A stretch of 46,037 nt of DNA from sequence record PZ445465.1; one strand, written 5' to 3'. The position numbers and the translations under genes were made by a program. Positions 35,203 through 44,349 of this stretch are shown piece by piece. The notes under the pieces were generated by a model. The model saw only the letters and a list, made by a program, of their open reading frames with translations. It had not been told where the DNA came from and searched no databases. Every line of letters starts with the position of its first letter. Position 1 is the stretch's first letter. The stretch comes from a phage.

Positions 35203-36144
35203 TTATAAATTAAACTGTTTTTTGAACCATTCAGGCGTTTCCATTTCTATGACAGGATTACCCATTGAATAACCGGGCCACGAATTGGCTTTTTTGCACG
35301 CCTTGTAAATTTCCATAGCGCCATGCAACTGAATTCGACCGATGCGTAATTGCTCTTCAGTCAAGCGAATTAACGCAGGAATAAATGGTGCTTTCTTTTC
35401 CTGAACGAGAAGATTAACAGAGCGTGGCGCATGACCATATGCCGCAACAAACATGTCGTGCTGCATCGCCATTTTCATAAAGTACCCAAGTCTCGCAGCA
35501 TGACGGAAAAACTCTTCTGGCTTGGCGCTCACCGCTGTTTTGTAGTCGATGATGTCGCCACCTTTGGTAAGGCAGTCAAAGCGAACTTTTGCCTTCTCTC
35601 CGTTAATTTCACCTAGAATTGACACTTCAGCATAAGCACCAGCGAGAAGACTGCTGTAATAGCTGTTTGCGTGGATTACAGCACGCATTTGCTGAATAGC
35701 GTCATAATCACCACCTTCCAGCATTTGCTTTCCTACAGCAGCTTTTTCAGCCTCTTCACGGATGACATCGTAAATTTTCACTGGCTCGCCAGTCGCCTGG
35801 ATGATTTTGATCACCTCAGCTTTCGACTTTCCTGAAAGTCCTTTGATGCCTCGTTCTTTTGCCCATGAGTTCATATCACTTACAGTAACAAGCAGGTCAT
35901 CACCAAAATCTTCTTTGGTTGGCATTCGTGCATATTCAGCATCAAAACGCTCTGGTTCAAGCAACGCAGTATGGCTACCTGTACCGAATATAAGAGCTTT
36001 TGATTGCTCATCCTCTTCGTCTTTGTATCGCCATGCTGCTGGGCATCTGTCAAGTATATTCCATAATCCAGAGCCATTAATATGCTCTGTGTCTGCGTGG
36101 TAATCTTCATTACTGAGTTCATTATTGAAATAGACTTTCATCAT
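35203..36144 (-). CDS. PD-(D/E)XK-type recombination exonuclease (putative)
   Basis: DCLTKGGDIIDYKT motif; neighbours SSB and ATPase. Confidence 0.55.
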   Translation of the reverse strand: MMKVYFNNELSNEDYHADTEHINGSGLWNILDRCPAAWRYKDEEDEQSKALIFGTGSHTALLEPERFDAEYARMPTKEDFGDDLLVTVSDMNSWAKERGIKGLSGKSKAEVIKIIQATGEPVKIYDVIREEAEKAAVGKQMLEGGDYDAIQQMRAVIHANSYYSSLLAGAYAEVSILGEINGEKAKVRFDCLTKGGDIIDYKTAVSAKPEEFFRHAARLGYFMKMAMQHDMFVAAYGHAPRSVNLLVQEKKAPFIPALIRLTEEQLRIGRIQLHGAMEIYKACKKANSWPGYSMGNPVIEMETPEWFKKQFNL

Positions 36145-36770
36145 CACTCTCCGTGGTTACAGAATTCTTTATGCATCTTTTCTCTGAATTTCATCACAGA
36201 CAACCTCGCTCTCTCAATATCATTGAATAACCCAAGATGGTATCTTTTCCCGTTAACATCACAGTAAGCCTGCCACTTTTTAACCTGTTTTTGCCAATAC
36301 ACACCTTTAACTCCTGATGTGTTATTTTTTGGTTTTTTAGCGTTATACTGGTTCTGCATATTTGTTGCGATTCTTAAGTTGCAAATCCTGTTATCGTCAC
36401 GCACGCCGTTAATGTGATCAATTTGACCTTCAGGCCAGAAACCATAATAAATCAACCATGCCAAGCGATGCGCGTAGTATCTTTTATTATTTATGCTTAT
36501 CTCTATGTATCCGTTATGTTTTTTCCTGCCAGCGACACTACCCTTTCTTATACCTCCACCCGTCTTATTTCTAATGAAAACCCCCGTTTCAGGGTTGTAA
36601 TTTAAGCTATCCAAAACAACATCACGTGGTATTCTTTTTCTTCCTCCTATGGTGTTTGACTCTGCACTTCCCTGAGCAAAATCTTGCTTTTGCAGTTCCG
36701 ATAAACTCATTTCCACAAACCTCGCACTTCTTAACGGTGATAGCCATTTCTTATCCTCTATTGTAATCAT
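36144..36770 (-). CDS. HNH homing endonuclease with AP2-like DNA-binding domain
   Basis: HNH-type His/Asn core (YAHRLAWLIYYG...IDHINGVRDDN) and C-terminal SGVKGVYWQKQVKKWQAYCDVNGKRYHLGLF AP2-type segment. Confidence 0.65.
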   Translation of the reverse strand: MITIEDKKWLSPLRSARFVEMSLSELQKQDFAQGSAESNTIGGRKRIPRDVVLDSLNYNPETGVFIRNKTGGGIRKGSVAGRKKHNGYIEISINNKRYYAHRLAWLIYYGFWPEGQIDHINGVRDDNRICNLRIATNMQNQYNAKKPKNNTSGVKGVYWQKQVKKWQAYCDVNGKRYHLGLFNDIERARLSVMKFREKMHKEFCNHGE

Positions 36771-39165: not shown

Positions 39166-39180
39166 AGCTACTAACCTTTG

Positions 39181-39221
39181 TTGATGTTTCTACGTCAGTT
39201 AGCTTATACTCAATCTACACC
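39181..39221. promoter_or_regulatory. divergent promoter/operator between helicase and primase
   Basis: TTGATG-N18-TATACT on the plus strand with GTTTCTACGTC (39186-39196) inside the spacer; CAATCTACACC at 39211-39221. Confidence 0.45.
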
Positions 39222-39240
39222 AACAATCAAGGGTCAATTT

Positions 39241-40194
39241 ATGAGATATGACTGGAAGGAAATCGAGCCAAAAATGATCGGCAACTGGCAGGCTGCCATC
39301 ATGTCTATCGTCAATGTGGATAGCAGAGTTTTCAATGGCAAGCACCAGCCATGCCCTCATTGCATGGGGGTTGACCGGTTCCGTTGGGATAATCACTTCG
39401 AAACAAAAGGCGATGGCGGCGCAATCTGCAATCAGTGCGGTTCCGGCAGCGGCATGAATTGGCTGATGAAACTCTCCGGAATGAGCTTTCCTGAAGCGCT
39501 GGAGGCGCTTGGTGGATTCCTGAACATGCACCCGCGCGAAAAGCTGGAGGCAATCAGGAAGGAGCTACCGAAGATAAATTATAGCGATGACTTCATCACT
39601 GAGCAGGAAGTCGCCGCAATAATGGCTAAAACGACTCGTGTCGCGATGAATGAGTGGACTTTGATAAATGGTATTGGTTGCGACGTTAACGTCACCAGAG
39701 GCAAATCTGGAGAACTTATTGCGGTTGAGATGATGCGAGCTGACACAATGAAACTGTGCAACGTGGCATTCATTGGCATGGATGGTGATTCAATCAGAAC
39801 GTTTTTCCGCGCAGGATACAACAAGGACTCAGCCATCAACGGCAAACTCACGCGCGGCGCGATAAGCCCAATCGGAGAAGACAACGGGAAGTTCATTTAC
39901 CTGGTATCTGATTATGCCGATGCGTGGAAGTGCCATTACTTCACTGGCGCGCATGTCTGGTGCTGCTGGTCGCCGGAAAACATGTGGGAAGTGGTGCGCT
40001 CTGTTAGCAATGAGATGAAGTCACGGTTACGCTGCATAGTTAATTATAAATTTGACGAACTTTGCGCTGCGGAAAACGCAGGGATTCCGGTGATGCTTCC
40101 TGATGATGCCGACACTATCAGGATGGCAAAGAGAATCAGGAGAAAGATTTATGACGCTGGCGAGTTGATAGAAAAAATGTCAGTCAACAGATAA
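39241..40194 (+). CDS. DNA primase (zinc-ribbon plus Toprim-like)
   Basis: CPHCMG...CNQCGSG zinc-binding motif typical of phage primase N-termini; start ATG 39241 after AAGGG. Confidence 0.65.
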   Translation: MRYDWKEIEPKMIGNWQAAIMSIVNVDSRVFNGKHQPCPHCMGVDRFRWDNHFETKGDGGAICNQCGSGSGMNWLMKLSGMSFPEALEALGGFLNMHPREKLEAIRKELPKINYSDDFITEQEVAAIMAKTTRVAMNEWTLINGIGCDVNVTRGKSGELIAVEMMRADTMKLCNVAFIGMDGDSIRTFFRAGYNKDSAINGKLTRGAISPIGEDNGKFIYLVSDYADAWKCHYFTGAHVWCCWSPENMWEVVRSVSNEMKSRLRCIVNYKFDELCAAENAGIPVMLPDDADTIRMAKRIRRKIYDAGELIEKMSVNR

Positions 40195-40195
40195 A

Positions 40196-40225
40196 AGAAA
40201 CCCTCCATATGGAGGGTTTTTTGTT
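40196..40225. terminator. bidirectional rho-independent terminator
   Basis: CCCTCC-ATAT-GGAGGG followed by TTTTTTG. Confidence 0.6.
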
Positions 40226-40640
40226 ATTTCTTGAACTCTGGTGCTTCAGTCCAGAAGGCTACATTTCGCAGAGACTTACTCGTGTGATTGCACCAGTATA
40301 TTCCTGAGTCATCATACTTGGCAGTAACCTTGACGCGATCAGTATCAATAATAACAACCTCCTGCCCATCTTTAGGGTCGAAAAGACGCGCATCCTTCCA
40401 GTTAGCAATCTCATTAAGGGAAAGAAGAACATAGCCTGGAAGATAAGCGCCGACATCAGCAATGTGAACTATTGTTCGCTCCGTTCTCTCTCCTGTGTAG
40501 TCGCCATTCCACTCATAAAGAATAACCGTGTCTCCAACCTTAAAATCACGATCGTTCTTCCTTAGTTCCGCCTTCTTGTGTCCGGTAACAACAGGCCAGA
40601 AGTGCTCAGGTAAGATTTTTAGTTCGTGTGTTTTGCTCAT
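40224..40640 (-). CDS. ASCH/PUA-like domain protein
   Basis: KILPEHF...GHKKAELRKNDRDFKVGDTV pattern typical of the ASCH domain. Confidence 0.55.
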   Translation of the reverse strand: MSKTHELKILPEHFWPVVTGHKKAELRKNDRDFKVGDTVILYEWNGDYTGERTERTIVHIADVGAYLPGYVLLSLNEIANWKDARLFDPKDGQEVVIIDTDRVKVTAKYDDSGIYWCNHTSKSLRNVAFWTEAPEFKK

Positions 40641-42217
40641 TTCAACCCCCTCATAAATCTCATGCGCTTAACAGCAGCAGAAAGATAATTTCTAACCGTT
40701 GAGTTCATTCGCAGTCCATCCCATGAACCATCGCTGCACATCTTAATCGCTCTTGGGTTATCTCTGTCCAGCATTAGTGGTGAATGCTTATTCTCCTCAA
40801 TCGCAAGAAGAACCTCATAAACAAATTTATCAGGTGTTAGTGTGATGTTATTAGAGTCAGCAGAATTAATTATCTTTTTAATTCTATCACGACACAGCTT
40901 GTTCTTTATAACAGACAAGTAAGGCGTTTTAATGAATGCCTGTGACTCACAAATTCGCTTAATTTTTTCTACAATGTTCTCCCATTCAGTATTTTCAAGT
41001 CCATCAAACTCCTGTTCGCCCTCAAGGAATCTTTGCAGACCAGCGAGATGCTCAAGAACCACGATATATCCCCATTCGACATGCTCCATCGTAACTGCTG
41101 GCGTCATTCCACGGCGACTTGACAGATCTGCGTAAGCCGCAAGAGTTGCAAGGTCTACAATCATCAGCCCCATGCGCGGGATAACGTCACCAACAACACC
41201 ATCGCGATCGCCAAGCTCACTTTCCAGTTTCATAGACAGAGATCTGTGCAGCTTTTTCACTTCATCATCAGCCCATACAGCGTTAGTTTTCGCGGTAAGA
41301 ATCCTACCTTTCCACTCATTGATTATTTTTCTTGAAATTGTGCCGCTAACTTCCACATCCTTCATCGCTGGCATTTCCTCACCAGCAAGATGTCCAAGCT
41401 GGAACAGCACTCGCCCCATACCGCCATCTTTCTGCCATGAACGCGCAGCATCTATTCCCTGCTCTGGAGTGACAGTAATCAGCGGAACAAATTTTGCGTT
41501 TTCAATTCCACCGTCTTTTGTTGCAATTTCGTATTCATTCATTGCCGACTTGAGCGCGCGACCAACGCTGTGGTCCATCATCGCAAGGCGCTTATAATCT
41601 ATGACGCCTTTACCATCATCACCACCAGTGAGTGGAACTATCCATCCCTCAGCGCTTGCTGCCGCCATAATGCGTTTTGGGTTTTGTTCCCAAGTAAGGT
41701 TTTCAAGCAACTCCTTTATTATTGGCCTGTTAGGAACCCACACTCCGCCGTCAGTAAGACCTCTATACCACGCCATAGTGCCGCCAAGATATGCATTACG
41801 CGGGTTGTTCCAGTCTTCAAGATGTTGCTTATCATCGTTCACAACGTAGAGCAAAGACCCACCTCCAGCAATAAGGTCTAACTGCATCTGTTTTGTCGAG
41901 GTTGATTTAGATGCGCAAACTCTGGACCCTATTCCCAGCGCGTTGGCATATGCCCTGACGAAACTCACCGGCGCACCCTTACCTGCACCAGAGCGAGCTA
42001 CCAGAAATATGCCGGTATTGCAGATACTACCTGTTGGACCAATCAAATATCGGCCAGCCATCGCCTGAGTAAGGCCCAATGCACCAGTTAAACGATACCT
42101 CTCACCATCATTACGGCGCTCAAAGTTTTTCGCAATCTCATCCATAAACTCACCAAGTGCACCAGGAGCATCCCTATTCATACCCATAGCCATGGACTCA
42201 AAATCAATAGCGCCCAT
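40637..42217 (-). CDS. large replication-module protein of unknown function
   Basis: 526 aa; start set at ATG 42217 (GGAGGG RBS, ATGA coupling); lies in the operon that starts next to the iteron array. Confidence 0.45.
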   Translation of the reverse strand: MGAIDFESMAMGMNRDAPGALGEFMDEIAKNFERRNDGERYRLTGALGLTQAMAGRYLIGPTGSICNTGIFLVARSGAGKGAPVSFVRAYANALGIGSRVCASKSTSTKQMQLDLIAGGGSLLYVVNDDKQHLEDWNNPRNAYLGGTMAWYRGLTDGGVWVPNRPIIKELLENLTWEQNPKRIMAAASAEGWIVPLTGGDDGKGVIDYKRLAMMDHSVGRALKSAMNEYEIATKDGGIENAKFVPLITVTPEQGIDAARSWQKDGGMGRVLFQLGHLAGEEMPAMKDVEVSGTISRKIINEWKGRILTAKTNAVWADDEVKKLHRSLSMKLESELGDRDGVVGDVIPRMGLMIVDLATLAAYADLSSRRGMTPAVTMEHVEWGYIVVLEHLAGLQRFLEGEQEFDGLENTEWENIVEKIKRICESQAFIKTPYLSVIKNKLCRDRIKKIINSADSNNITLTPDKFVYEVLLAIEENKHSPLMLDRDNPRAIKMCSDGSWDGLRMNSTVRNYLSAAVKRMRFMRGLK

Positions 42218-42507
42218 CAATATACCCTCCATACTCGCAAGAATTTGCCAGGGATAATACCTTGTTTCACAGTTACCACCGCACCAGCCCTGTCAGCCTC
42301 AATTTTTATCGCCTTCTGAAGTGACGTCATTGTCATCTGAAAACCTCGCTCTATATCGTATGCGTAGCACCCATCTCTTCCACCAATCAAAATTGAAGTT
42401 GAATACCCGTTCTCAAAGTAAAACTGACACCCATCAGGAGCTGTAAGATTATTTATCACGTCGTGAGCAAGAGATGTCGTGACAGGGAATATCTGAGCGC
42501 AACTCAT
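42217..42507 (-). CDS. hypothetical protein (96 aa)
   Basis: ATG 42507 with GGAGGT RBS. Confidence 0.45.
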   Translation of the reverse strand: MSCAQIFPVTTSLAHDVINNLTAPDGCQFYFENGYSTSILIGGRDGCYAYDIERGFQMTMTSLQKAIKIEADRAGAVVTVKQGIIPGKFLRVWRVY

Positions 42508-42509
42508 AC

Positions 42510-42749
42510 CTACCTCCACCCCATGTGTAACAATAAAATTTCGTCTTTATCAACATTCACCAACACCTTGATACCCATATCCATTGAAACAATACTGACA
42601 TTTGTTCGAAAACTCGGTAACCCCATCGCGCGCGCACGTTCCCAATCTTCACCACAAACAAACCACCCATCATGCGTTCTCCTCAGGCGCTTAAGTAACC
42701 CGTACACCCACTCAAGATTTGACCCTTTACGGTAATTTAGTTCTTTCAT
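42510..42749 (-). CDS. hypothetical protein (79 aa)
   Basis: ATG 42749 with GGAGGT RBS; first gene leftward of the AT-rich iteron region. Confidence 0.45.
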   Translation of the reverse strand: MKELNYRKGSNLEWVYGLLKRLRRTHDGWFVCGEDWERARAMGLPSFRTNVSIVSMDMGIKVLVNVDKDEILLLHMGWR

Positions 42750-42858
42750 ACTTACCTCCATCTCCAGTGACTCTAATTTTATATAAATAAAAAAGATATG
42801 CAATTCTAATATGTGCTGGCTGTACAGTTTGGCTAATTTTTGCTCGATTTATACCGTC

Positions 42859-43248
42859 TTTACCTGGTTTTTACCGTGCTATTTTTGATGCAACTAATTG
42901 ATTAATAAGATTTTACCGGTTTTACCGGATTTCTTAAGTGGTATTTTAATTATTAAGATTGGCAGTGTATTAATTTGATCTAATTTTAATAAACTTAAAT
43001 AAAATCAATATATTAATATGAATGAATAACTTACTTACCTCTATAGAATTTACCGGGTAAAACCGGTAACTCCTCCGCAAGCCGCGCCATTGCTGGCTTC
43101 ATTTTTACCACCTGTAGGTAAATACAGTAGTTTTTAAGTGATAATTGTTTTGGTAAGCTGTTGATTACCGGTGCTTTATTTAAAAAACCGGCATTTACCG
43201 GTATTTTGTGGAGTGATTAATAAGTGCGCAATTAGTCCTTGTTTACCA
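42859..43248. repeat. AT-rich iteron array (TTTACCGG-type repeats); candidate origin of replication
   Basis: nine or more direct and inverted copies of TTTACC(G/T)G or its reverse complement, e.g. 42859-42867, 42872-42877, 42912-42919, 42921-42928, 43049-43056 with inverted partner 43063-43070, 43105-43110/43117-43122, 43165-43172, 43184-43191, 43194-43201, 43242-43248. Confidence 0.55.
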
Positions 43249-43277
43249 GAATCAACAAGTGCGAAACCTAAATAATG

Positions 43278-43306
43278 TTGACGTAGAAACATCATTGATG
43301 TAGATT
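43278..43306 (+). promoter_or_regulatory. sigma70-like promoter TTGACG-N17-TAGATT overlapping motif copies
   Basis: TTGACGTAGAAAC (43278-43290) and GATGTAGATTG (43297-43307); GAGGG RBS and ATG 43337 downstream. Confidence 0.45.
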
Positions 43307-43336
43307 GAACTCATCGGAACAAACGAGGGTGAAGAG

Positions 43337-43522
43337 ATGAACAAAGAAAGCACGTACAGCATCGACCAGATGAAGTTGTTCAGCGATATATGCATGGCAT
43401 TGTCACAACAGGTTCCAAGTCTACCTGCTGATATGCGCTCAAATGCCATCATTGATGCGGCAAACATGATTTGTGAGGCATATGCTATGACTGAAGATGA
43501 ATATAAGGCATCGAAGAAATGA
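43337..43522 (+). CDS. hypothetical protein (61 aa)
   Basis: ATG 43337 with GAGGG RBS. Confidence 0.5.
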   Translation: MNKESTYSIDQMKLFSDICMALSQQVPSLPADMRSNAIIDAANMICEAYAMTEDEYKASKK

Positions 43523-43614
43523 CAGGCGCAGCATTCGAGCTTATCTCCAGTCTGGTTATCGTGGCATTCATCATTATCGCAGTGGCGGTTTCTAAATCAG
43601 GGTATAAGGAGTAA
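43519..43614 (+). CDS. small hydrophobic peptide (31 aa)
   Basis: unlisted ORF with ATGA overlap; single hydrophobic helix. Confidence 0.3.
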   Translation: MTGAAFELISSLVIVAFIIIAVAVSKSGYKE

Positions 43615-43617
43615 CAA

Positions 43618-43800
43618 ATGGCAAAGACTATCTATCGTCGCGAGAAACTGGAGCCTGAACTCGGTCACGTTGGCGCGCAAAACTTTATGAGCAAGCAGGC
43701 ACGCAATGCAATGGAATCTATACGCGTGAATCGCGTTGTGCGCGTGTTTAACGGTGAAGGTAAGCGAAGAGTAATGGATGAACTGATTATCGTATTTTGA
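43618..43800 (+). CDS. hypothetical protein (60 aa)
   Basis: AAGGAG RBS 6 nt upstream of ATG 43618. Confidence 0.5.
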   Translation: MAKTIYRREKLEPELGHVGAQNFMSKQARNAMESIRVNRVVRVFNGEGKRRVMDELIIVF

Positions 43801-43836
43801 CATCGATTCAGCAGGCTTATTTCTAATGGTGATGAT

Positions 43837-44064
43837 ATGGAAAAAGTAAAAACATACGAGTTCTGGTTTGTGCAGAACAAAATGTATGCAAGCAGGACAA
43901 TCAAGAGAGTCAGCTGGTGGAATAAGTGGTTAATCCTCTCCGGCTGCATCGTGCTGGCAAAGTGCAAATTCAAAGCGATTGACATCACTGATGAAAACGC
44001 ACTCAAAATCGCAAAGATTGTGTTTGAAGAGGATGGCTATTACGAAGAAATTATGGGGGGTTAG
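43837..44064 (+). CDS. hypothetical protein (75 aa)
   Basis: ATG 43837; internal hydrophobic segment. Confidence 0.4.
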   Translation: MEKVKTYEFWFVQNKMYASRTIKRVSWWNKWLILSGCIVLAKCKFKAIDITDENALKIAKIVFEEDGYYEEIMGG

Positions 44065-44067
44065 GGT

Positions 44068-44349
44068 ATGAGTGAAGTTAAAACGTATGCAGTAAACTGC
44101 AACGACGCGTGGCTTAATACAGATGGTGATGACATCTCTGGCTCATATGTTAAGTATGCTGATTACGCAGCTCTTCAAGCTAAATGCGATGAGCTACTTA
44201 AAGAAATTAAAAACATGCAGGACCAAGCCCTTGATGATGGATGCCGAATTACAGAGCTTGAAGAAGCCTTGCAAGATAAGCAGGCACTAATTCCTGATGA
44301 GCACGACACCACCGCTCTGCAATTCGAAAGCCTGGCTAAAAGTGAATAG
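44068..44349 (+). CDS. hypothetical acidic protein (93 aa)
   Basis: ATG 44068 after a GGGGG RBS. Confidence 0.5.
   Translation: MSEVKTYAVNCNDAWLNTDGDDISGSYVKYADYAALQAKCDELLKEIKNMQDQALDDGCRITELEEALQDKQALIPDEHDTTALQFESLAKSE

Follow-up and report, generated by a model that had tools for sequence, protein, structure and literature searches.

A probable iteron-type replication origin in an exchangeable cassette of an enterobacterial siphovirus, matched to an MCM-like helicase

In satellite phage P4, the helicase-type initiator alpha recognises octamer repeats in direct and inverted orientation close to AT-rich DNA, and a primase function is required. Alpha is an SF3 helicase fused to a primase and uses a second repeat cluster (crr). 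The Rep proteins of SaPIs are self-loading AAA+ initiator-helicases, and those of the SaPIbov1/SaPI2 type belong to SF6 (PMC9371898). The C-terminal winged helix of SaPI Rep binds 6-12 short iterons, which lie on both sides of an AT-rich centre (PMC9371898). DUF3987 proteins are SF6 (MCM-related) putative replicative helicases that have a C-terminal wHTH and are encoded beside AEP/DnaG primases (Kazlauskas et al. 2016, PMC4889955), and one DUF3987-type protein, AgaPH, was demonstrated to be a helicase (PMC11724360). In the searchable literature, no report of origin or iteron recognition by DUF3987 proteins was found. Likewise, full-text searches that covered the genus, the BASEL paper and the combination of DUF3987 and iterons found no replication origin or initiator reported for the siphovirus group studied here (the original genome paper of Vi II-E1 is outside this scope). 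The GenBank record of Vi II-E1 annotates repeats.

We analysed a stretch of DNA of 46,037 nucleotides (PZ445465.1), called the window here, which is a complete-looking siphovirus genome of the Skatevirus/Macdonaldcampvirus group. In this genome a 586-bp gap (42751-43336) separates a leftward transcription unit from a rightward one. The leftward operon contains a 79-aa gene, a ~100-aa gene, a 526/531-aa gene and an ASCH-domain gene, and the rightward unit consists of a promoter (43278-43306) followed by a 61-aa gene. The nearest published relative over this locus is Escherichia phage ChristineMuster_Bas80, which is 99.8% identical across 42400-43600. A preliminary description had pointed to repeats in 42859-43248 as a candidate iteron origin, and the comparisons below favour the same interpretation: an AT-rich core is flanked by repeats, the repeat cores are conserved and the repeated word appears to be matched to the helicase. 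We conclude that 42835-43275 is probably the replication origin of the phage, of the iteron type and used by a self-loading initiator-helicase as in SaPI Rep/ori, because the repeats flank the least stable DNA, their cores are conserved and the layout recurs in other genomes with helicase-matched words. The functional unit is better bounded at about these positions than at those first given. The genes and promoters around it are as follows.

39178-40194, plus strand: Zn-ribbon (DnaG-type) primase (PF08273, phrog_510), a separate gene just outside the cassette
40228-43275: exchangeable replication cassette, made of the ASCH-domain gene, the helicase gene, two small genes and the iteron/AT-rich region
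40637-42217, minus strand: putative initiator-helicase, 526 aa (531 aa from an upstream ATG at 42232), Walker A GAGKG
42217-42519, minus strand: small gene s1 (~96-100 aa), directly preceding the helicase gene
42510-42749, minus strand: small gene s2 (79 aa), at the head of the leftward operon
42937-42910, minus strand: sigma-70-like site TTAAGA-16-TAAAAT, whose spacer coincides with the tandem iteron pair
43278-43306, plus strand: rightward early promoter TTGACG-17-TAGATT, which marks the right edge of the cassette and lies outside it

In the promoter scan overall, sites were no more numerous than in shuffles. The word TTGACGTAGA of the rightward promoter is present in 53 of 60 sequences (the window and 59 loci), even in branches with 57-66% primase identity.

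The region had been described as non-coding. The ORF listing agrees with this, but the GenBank record of Bas80 annotates two tiny ORFs of 36-39 aa there, Bas80_0080 and Bas80_0081, on the minus strand at window positions 42970-43080 and 43176-43295. No ORF is annotated in the iteron region in the ASO78B record, and the tiny ORFs of Bas80 are without support in relatives. The DNA behaves like non-coding sequence, and both calls are probably spurious. A structured RNA gene was also considered and rejected, since an Rfam search of the region at E <= 1 gave no match and neither a tRNA nor a tmRNA was found. Terminator-like hits near 43164-43201 were rejected as palindromes made by the iterons themselves. 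Cumulative GC skew, which had been suggested as a check, has its minimum in the region of the gap, but the same point is the change of transcription direction; the minimum was therefore set aside as giving no independent support.

The repeats are present where they had been placed and are far above chance. Exact TTTACC(G/T)G occurs five times in 42859-43201, always on the plus strand, and only twice in the remaining 45.6 kb. When up to one mismatch is allowed, TTTACCKG has 11 copies in 42859-43249 (eight plus, three minus), while ~0.6 copies are expected from the rest of the window. Thus, the earlier count of at least nine copies is right with one mismatch allowed and too high for exact copies. 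In 42751-43336, TTACC occurs 15 times versus 1.85 +/- 1.28 expected (shuffle maximum 7) and TTACCGG six times versus 0.07 expected, where expectations come from 2000 local dinucleotide shuffles of 42751-43336. This is an enrichment of 8- to 80-fold over the local shuffles. One TTACC copy, at 42752, is not an iteron but the leftward gene's ribosome-binding site. No second TTTACCGG cluster was found elsewhere in the genome. The iterons form two sets. The left set (42849-42928) has four or five direct copies of (T)TTTACCGG at 9-11 bp spacing, and the right set (43049-43201) has at least seven copies in mixed orientation. The tandem pair and both inverted elements of the preliminary description, TTTACCGGGTAAAACCGGTAA at 43049-43069 and TTTACC-N7-GGTAAA at 43104-43122, were all recovered. 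The iterons are arranged as follows.

42849-42877, plus strand: left distal iterons ATACCGT, TTTACCTG and TTTACCGT, degenerate, direct, spaced 10-11 bp
42911-42928, plus strand: tandem iteron pair TTTTACCGG TTTTACCGG, 9-bp period, kept in ASO78B, Bas81 and L010
43049-43070: composite iteron element TTTACCGGGTAAAACCGGTAAC, three overlapping copies (plus, minus, minus), invariant in four relatives
43103-43123: inverted iteron pair TTTTTACC-acctgta-GGTAAATA, invariant in relatives
43164-43201: right distal iterons ATTACCGGT, AAAACCGG and TTTACCGGT, conserved in relatives

At the positions of the left distal iterons, relatives carry TTTACCTA and TTTACCGT. Among close relatives, 92% of the columns in iteron cores are invariant versus 74% in spacers (Fisher p = 2.6e-4). 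Two peripheral copies, at 43152 (minus) and 43242 (plus), are not kept in the closest relatives. The orientation of the iterons is not a clean left/right inversion, as the left copies are all direct and the right copies point both ways.

Between the two sets lies DNA that is free of iterons and easily melted. The region had been called AT-rich as a whole; this is true of its core and not of the region uniformly, which also contains a GC-rich patch.

42931-43050: AT-rich core, candidate DNA-unwinding element; its AT content, 81.7%, exceeds that of every other 120-bp stretch in the window
43002-43014, plus strand: IHF consensus match AATCAATATATTA, part of AAATCAATATATTA (43001-43014), invariant in close relatives
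43071-43101: GC-rich patch ctcctccgcaagccgcgccattgctggcttca, ~30 bp, between iteron elements

Within the core, 42945-43044 is the least stable 100 bp in 46 kb, with a nearest-neighbour dG of -102.9 kcal/mol versus a window mean of -138.6 (sd 7.1; z about +5). The IHF-consensus word AAATCAATnnnnTTA has 45 matches over 47 related regions versus ~7 expected from approximate shuffles. It recurs in cassettes with unrelated iterons (L004 at 519-531, L007, L018, L024 and others); in the branch of 57-66% primase identity, most loci lack it. The window has a second match to the IHF-consensus word at 42891-42903. The GC-rich patch is kept in ASO78B, Bas81 and L010 and is recognisable in a locus of the 539-aa helicase type (L062), although the adjoining AT-rich DNA is unalignable there. 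In the 549-aa type, a similar GC-rich patch lies within the left iteron set. A DnaA-dependent (oriC-like) origin was rejected, because no DnaA box TTATCCACA was found within one mismatch in 42751-43336.

Comparison with other phages revealed that the repeats belong to an exchanged block. Most of the genome is 96-99.8% identical between the window and Bas78; identity is 97.5% up to 40227, the end of the primase gene, and 99.5% from 43276, the -35 box, onward. Between these points, the 3,048 bp of 40228-43275 show no similarity between the two, and none of the few other unaligned segments comes near this one in size. In this two-genome comparison, TTACCGG clusters occur only in the window and CCCCACG only in Bas78. 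In contrast, 39238-44178 is 99.0% identical to Bas80, whereas the remaining Bas80 backbone is only 85-97% identical. The window genome is thus a mosaic of a Bas78-like backbone and a Bas80-like 39238-44178, and no end-to-end match to it was seen among the phage-collection records examined. Because the block of Bas78 is replaced and that of Bas80 is shared, helicase and repeats move together as one unit, and the protein which reads the repeats must be encoded inside the cassette. The ASCH/DUF3850 gene (40224-40640) is present in some cassette variants only. Elsewhere, the window and Bas78 both have an HNH/AP2-like endonuclease gene (36144-36770), most of which does not align with Bas80 (window 36142-36661).

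We then compared 54 related loci from IMG/VR, together with GenBank records, using the conserved primase as an anchor, the Zn-ribbon primase gene being kept across all cassette types. In every genome there is a non-coding region to the left of the promoter word and then a leftward protein of ~500 aa. This protein falls into three superclusters of 517-529 aa, 530-549 aa (the type of the window) and 495/496 aa, and the first of them is strongly PF13148/DUF3987. Layout statistics were taken over 47 distinct related regions, and the repeated word was defined as the most repeated GC-containing word of each non-coding region. Words repeated across these regions include TTTACCGG, AGTTACCGG, GAGTTCCC, CGTGGGGCA, TTGGGGCA, GGGCGAA and GGGATAA, and they go with the helicase types in this way.

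530/531-aa protein: repeated word TTTACCGG
542-aa protein: repeated word AGTTACCGG (10-15 copies)
539-aa protein: repeated word AGTTACCGG
549-aa protein: repeated word GAGTTCCC(G)
PF13148-type protein of 517-529 aa: repeated word CGTGGGGcA, TTGGGGcA, GGGCGAA or GGGCATA
495/496-aa protein: repeated word GGGATAA or GGTTGAA

The layout is common to most of them. In 35 of the 47 regions, the most AT-rich 100 bp (median 84% AT) has two or more copies of the region's own word to its left, two or more to its right and hardly any within. Each of the 13 regions in the supercluster of the window has three to six copies on the left, none in the core and five to nine on the right. Some loci of the 495-aa type have weak repeats only. 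P0005 (539 aa, 47% identity) was a helicase subtype checked after the layout had been predicted, and its locus has the predicted order: six AGTTACCGG-type copies, an AT-rich core, AGTTACCGGGTAAATCTGGTAACT with further inverted copies, and the promoter. AGTTACCGGGTAAATCTGGTAACT is homologous to the composite element TTTACCGGGTAAAACCGGTAAC of the window. In the 549-aa type (L034), the orientation of the iterons is a clean mirror. The preliminary description had held that absence of the repeats from related genomes with the same flanking genes would speak against an origin; what such genomes carry is repeats of a different word in the same layout, together with a different helicase. Co-variation of helicase and iteron partly reflects shared descent, because the two are physically linked in one block. 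What carries the argument is that the layout reappears independently with other words, and not the correlation alone. In one locus of the 495/496-aa type (L018), GGGATAA(A) reads TTTATCCC on the other strand and shares the TTATCC core of the DnaA box. This may be coincidence or a hint of a host factor in that cassette type.

The large protein of the cassette is, by predicted fold, an MCM-clade AAA+ helicase, of the kind placed in superfamily 3 or 6. Its AF2 model, built from a 14-sequence alignment, has a pLDDT of 88, and a Foldseek search of the model against the PDB agrees with an MCM-like AAA+ helicase fold. BFVD returns a 495-aa 'replicative DNA helicase' of a sister cassette, DUF3987 proteins and primase-helicase fusions. 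Relatives by sequence are few (49 matches at E <= 1e-3 among 1.84 billion representatives), and the remote matches are DUF3987 proteins or PrimPol-DUF3987 fusions, which carry PF13148. The Pfam scan of the 526-aa protein gave no match at E <= 0.01, so it stays below the PF13148 (DUF3987) gathering threshold, while helicases of sister cassettes score 121-128 bits and are bona fide members. With hhalign, the helicase family of the window and the PF13148-type family did not match significantly (probability 0.5%); homology between the two helicase superclusters thus rests on fold and remote HMM hits only. Sequence searches of the PDB with the 526-aa protein and with both helicase profiles gave nothing meaningful. 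In the AF2 model, residues ~444-493 form a helix-helix-beta-hairpin followed by a basic terminal helix. This part, the candidate for a winged helix like that of SaPI Rep, has no Pfam match, and the putative recognition helix of the helix-helix-hairpin is not basic. No single specificity-determining domain stood out in sliding-window identity along the helicases.

The preliminary description had named the 526-aa protein or the small adjacent proteins as candidates for binding the repeats. The former is the MCM-like helicase, whose start codon lies ~0.6 kb (about 620 bp) from the iterons with two small genes between, and it is the best partner co-varying with the iteron word; the small genes are uncoupled across cassettes. 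For s2 the case is simple: ASO78B, Bas81 and L010 have the iterons of the window but an s2 of only 33% identity, which makes s2 unlikely to be the reader. Cassettes elsewhere in this supercluster that have related iterons lack the ASCH gene. For s1, a different model has to be weighed, in which the region is still an origin and s1 (42217-42519) is the iteron reader or an adaptor that recruits a helicase without sequence specificity. Within the supercluster of the window, s1 and the helicase follow iteron type in exactly the same way and are inseparable there as candidate binders; TTTACCGG-type loci share 90-93% identity in s1, against 26% to the 542-aa type. In most cassettes, moreover, a small gene precedes the helicase. 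However, s1 has no Pfam or PHROG match and no recognisable DNA-binding domain, and in PF13148-type cassettes the adjacent small gene is swapped or absent while the iterons stay unchanged. The helicases of Bas78 and Vi II-E1, for example, are 98% identical and their iteron regions 92%, whereas their adjacent small genes are unrelated, with no blastp or tblastn match. In the TGGGG group, the flank CG versus T follows the helicase subtype across the small-gene families s0, s3 and s9. We therefore consider reading by s1 unlikely, and the helicase itself the preferred candidate. By eye, VIP0049 of Vi II-E1 (L005 3323-3595), the small gene beside the helicase in cassettes of that type, which its record calls a pseudogene, resembles an AP2-type DNA-binding domain of homing-endonuclease relatives; Bas78-type cassettes have an unrelated 72-aa gene in its place.

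It is similarly improbable that the repeats have no role in initiation and serve only transcription, as operators of a cassette-encoded regulator for the divergent leftward helicase operon, the rightward early promoter or both. The region does lie between divergent transcription units, the tandem pair is inside a minus-strand promoter-like element, and initiators of iteron plasmids commonly autoregulate through their own iterons. However, at least ten sites spread over 400 bp flank and avoid the most meltable DNA, which is the architecture of an origin and not of an operator, and the exchanged block does not include the conserved rightward promoter, whose distance from the iterons varies from ~25 to 85 bp or more among related loci; a purely transcriptional role is less likely for these reasons. 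In addition, no HTH-type regulator was detected in the cassette, and its sole large co-varying protein is the helicase. Autoregulation through the tandem pair is compatible with the origin model. That the region is a site for packaging (pac) or partition, or is recognised by some protein from another part of the genome, for instance the small terminase subunit or a ParB-like protein, is very improbable. The repeated boxes of some pac sites and a candidate small terminase gene ~2 kb downstream of the region are weak leads. Against them, the window and Bas78 share 98-99.8% identity in their terminase, TerS-candidate and ParB-like genes, while the repeat words of the two are mutually exclusive; the same genes with entirely different repeats led us to reject both pac and ParB sites. 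The idea that the repeats are a chance or low-complexity feature of intergenic DNA has the AT-richness of the region in its favour and nothing further, and we give it practically no weight: none of the 2000 local dinucleotide shuffles reached the observed counts, cores are conserved above spacers, and the layout recurs with different words in the 35 regions. These results refute it.

We thus return to an origin read by the helicase. Three features expected of an iteron origin are found here: a clustered word above chance, a meltable element between iterons and a word matched to a nearby replication protein. We infer binding, melting, self-loading and origin firing as follows. The MCM-like AAA+ helicase (40637-42217) would recognise the iterons, directly or with s1, assemble on both sides of the AT-rich core, melt the core and load itself. 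No separate initiator or loader would be needed. The DNA may be bent at the conserved IHF-type site of the core. The Zn-ribbon primase (39178-40194) would then prime synthesis, and elongation would presumably be carried out by the host polymerase, because the Bas80 and Bas78 records annotate no DNA polymerase. Binding at the tandem pair could, at the same time, autoregulate the leftward helicase operon.

The comparative evidence gives a role to an intergenic region and explains a mosaic hotspot. It also gives a concrete role to the ~500-aa proteins of this group, which are annotated as 'hypothetical', 'primase' or 'helicase'. The group of enterobacterial siphoviruses is widespread, and some of its phages are candidates for phage therapy. 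We put forward tentatively, as quite possible, a wider reading for the Skatevirus/Macdonaldcampvirus-like virulent siphoviruses that infect E. coli, Salmonella, Shigella and Klebsiella: the family as a whole may possess eight or more origin/helicase pairs that are mutually orthogonal. In each, an MCM-clade (SF6, DUF3987-related) helicase would act as its own origin-recognition protein and loader, and 3-kb cassettes reaching from the primase terminator to the -35 box of the early promoter would shuffle the pairs among genomes that are nearly identical in other respects. BASEL phages Bas78-81 are a natural panel of matched and mismatched helicase/iteron pairs, which is public and genetically usable in E. 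coli. If the reading is true, these would be the first E. coli phages to offer a tractable model of how an MCM-like helicase recognises an origin by its sequence. Diversification of the cassettes might then serve replication incompatibility, or might aid escape from satellites or defence systems aimed at one origin/helicase pair.

An iteron origin with an initiator-helicase is an already known kind of system, and several independent comparative lines support its presence here; each computational test able to speak against it came out in agreement. The protein of the window shares with DUF3987 (PF13148)/SF6 phage helicases an MCM-like fold, a Walker A/B ATPase, a small C-terminal domain and a primase neighbour, but it is below the Pfam threshold and is linked to them through remote profile matches and fold only. 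As in lambdoid O/ori-lambda and iteron plasmids (pSC101, R6K, RK2), the iterons adjoin an AT-rich unwinding element, initiator and origin swap as a specificity module, and an IHF site may take part. Unlike these systems, the window has neither an O-like nor a Rep (winged-helix dimer) initiator and no DnaA boxes within one mismatch. Moreover, its origin is not within an initiator gene, and the candidate reader is the helicase itself. P4 alpha differs in that the helicase of the window is of the MCM/SF6 type, its DnaG-like primase is separate and it has no second TTTACCGG cluster. The closest characterised system is SaPI Rep/ori, above all with the SF6-type Rep of SaPIbov1/SaPI2. Here the differences are that SaPIs are Gram-positive satellites while the window is a virulent enterobacterial siphovirus; that the SaPI ori is immediately downstream of rep while the origin of the window is upstream of the helicase operon, with two small genes between; and that SaPI iterons are 5-6 nt long while those of the window are 8-9 nt. 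The SaPI criterion is at least two iterons on each side in opposite directions, compared with four or five all-direct copies on the left and at least seven mixed copies on the right in the window. The 526-aa protein has no sequence similarity to solved Rep or Cch chains. What the two systems have in common is an MCM-related AAA+ initiator-helicase, here a putative one by predicted fold, and an origin, here a probable one, that adjoins the helicase gene. In both, two iteron sets with copies in both orientations flank an AT-rich centre. In both, specificity differs between elements and the protein is matched to its own iterons, for the window as judged from sequence comparison.
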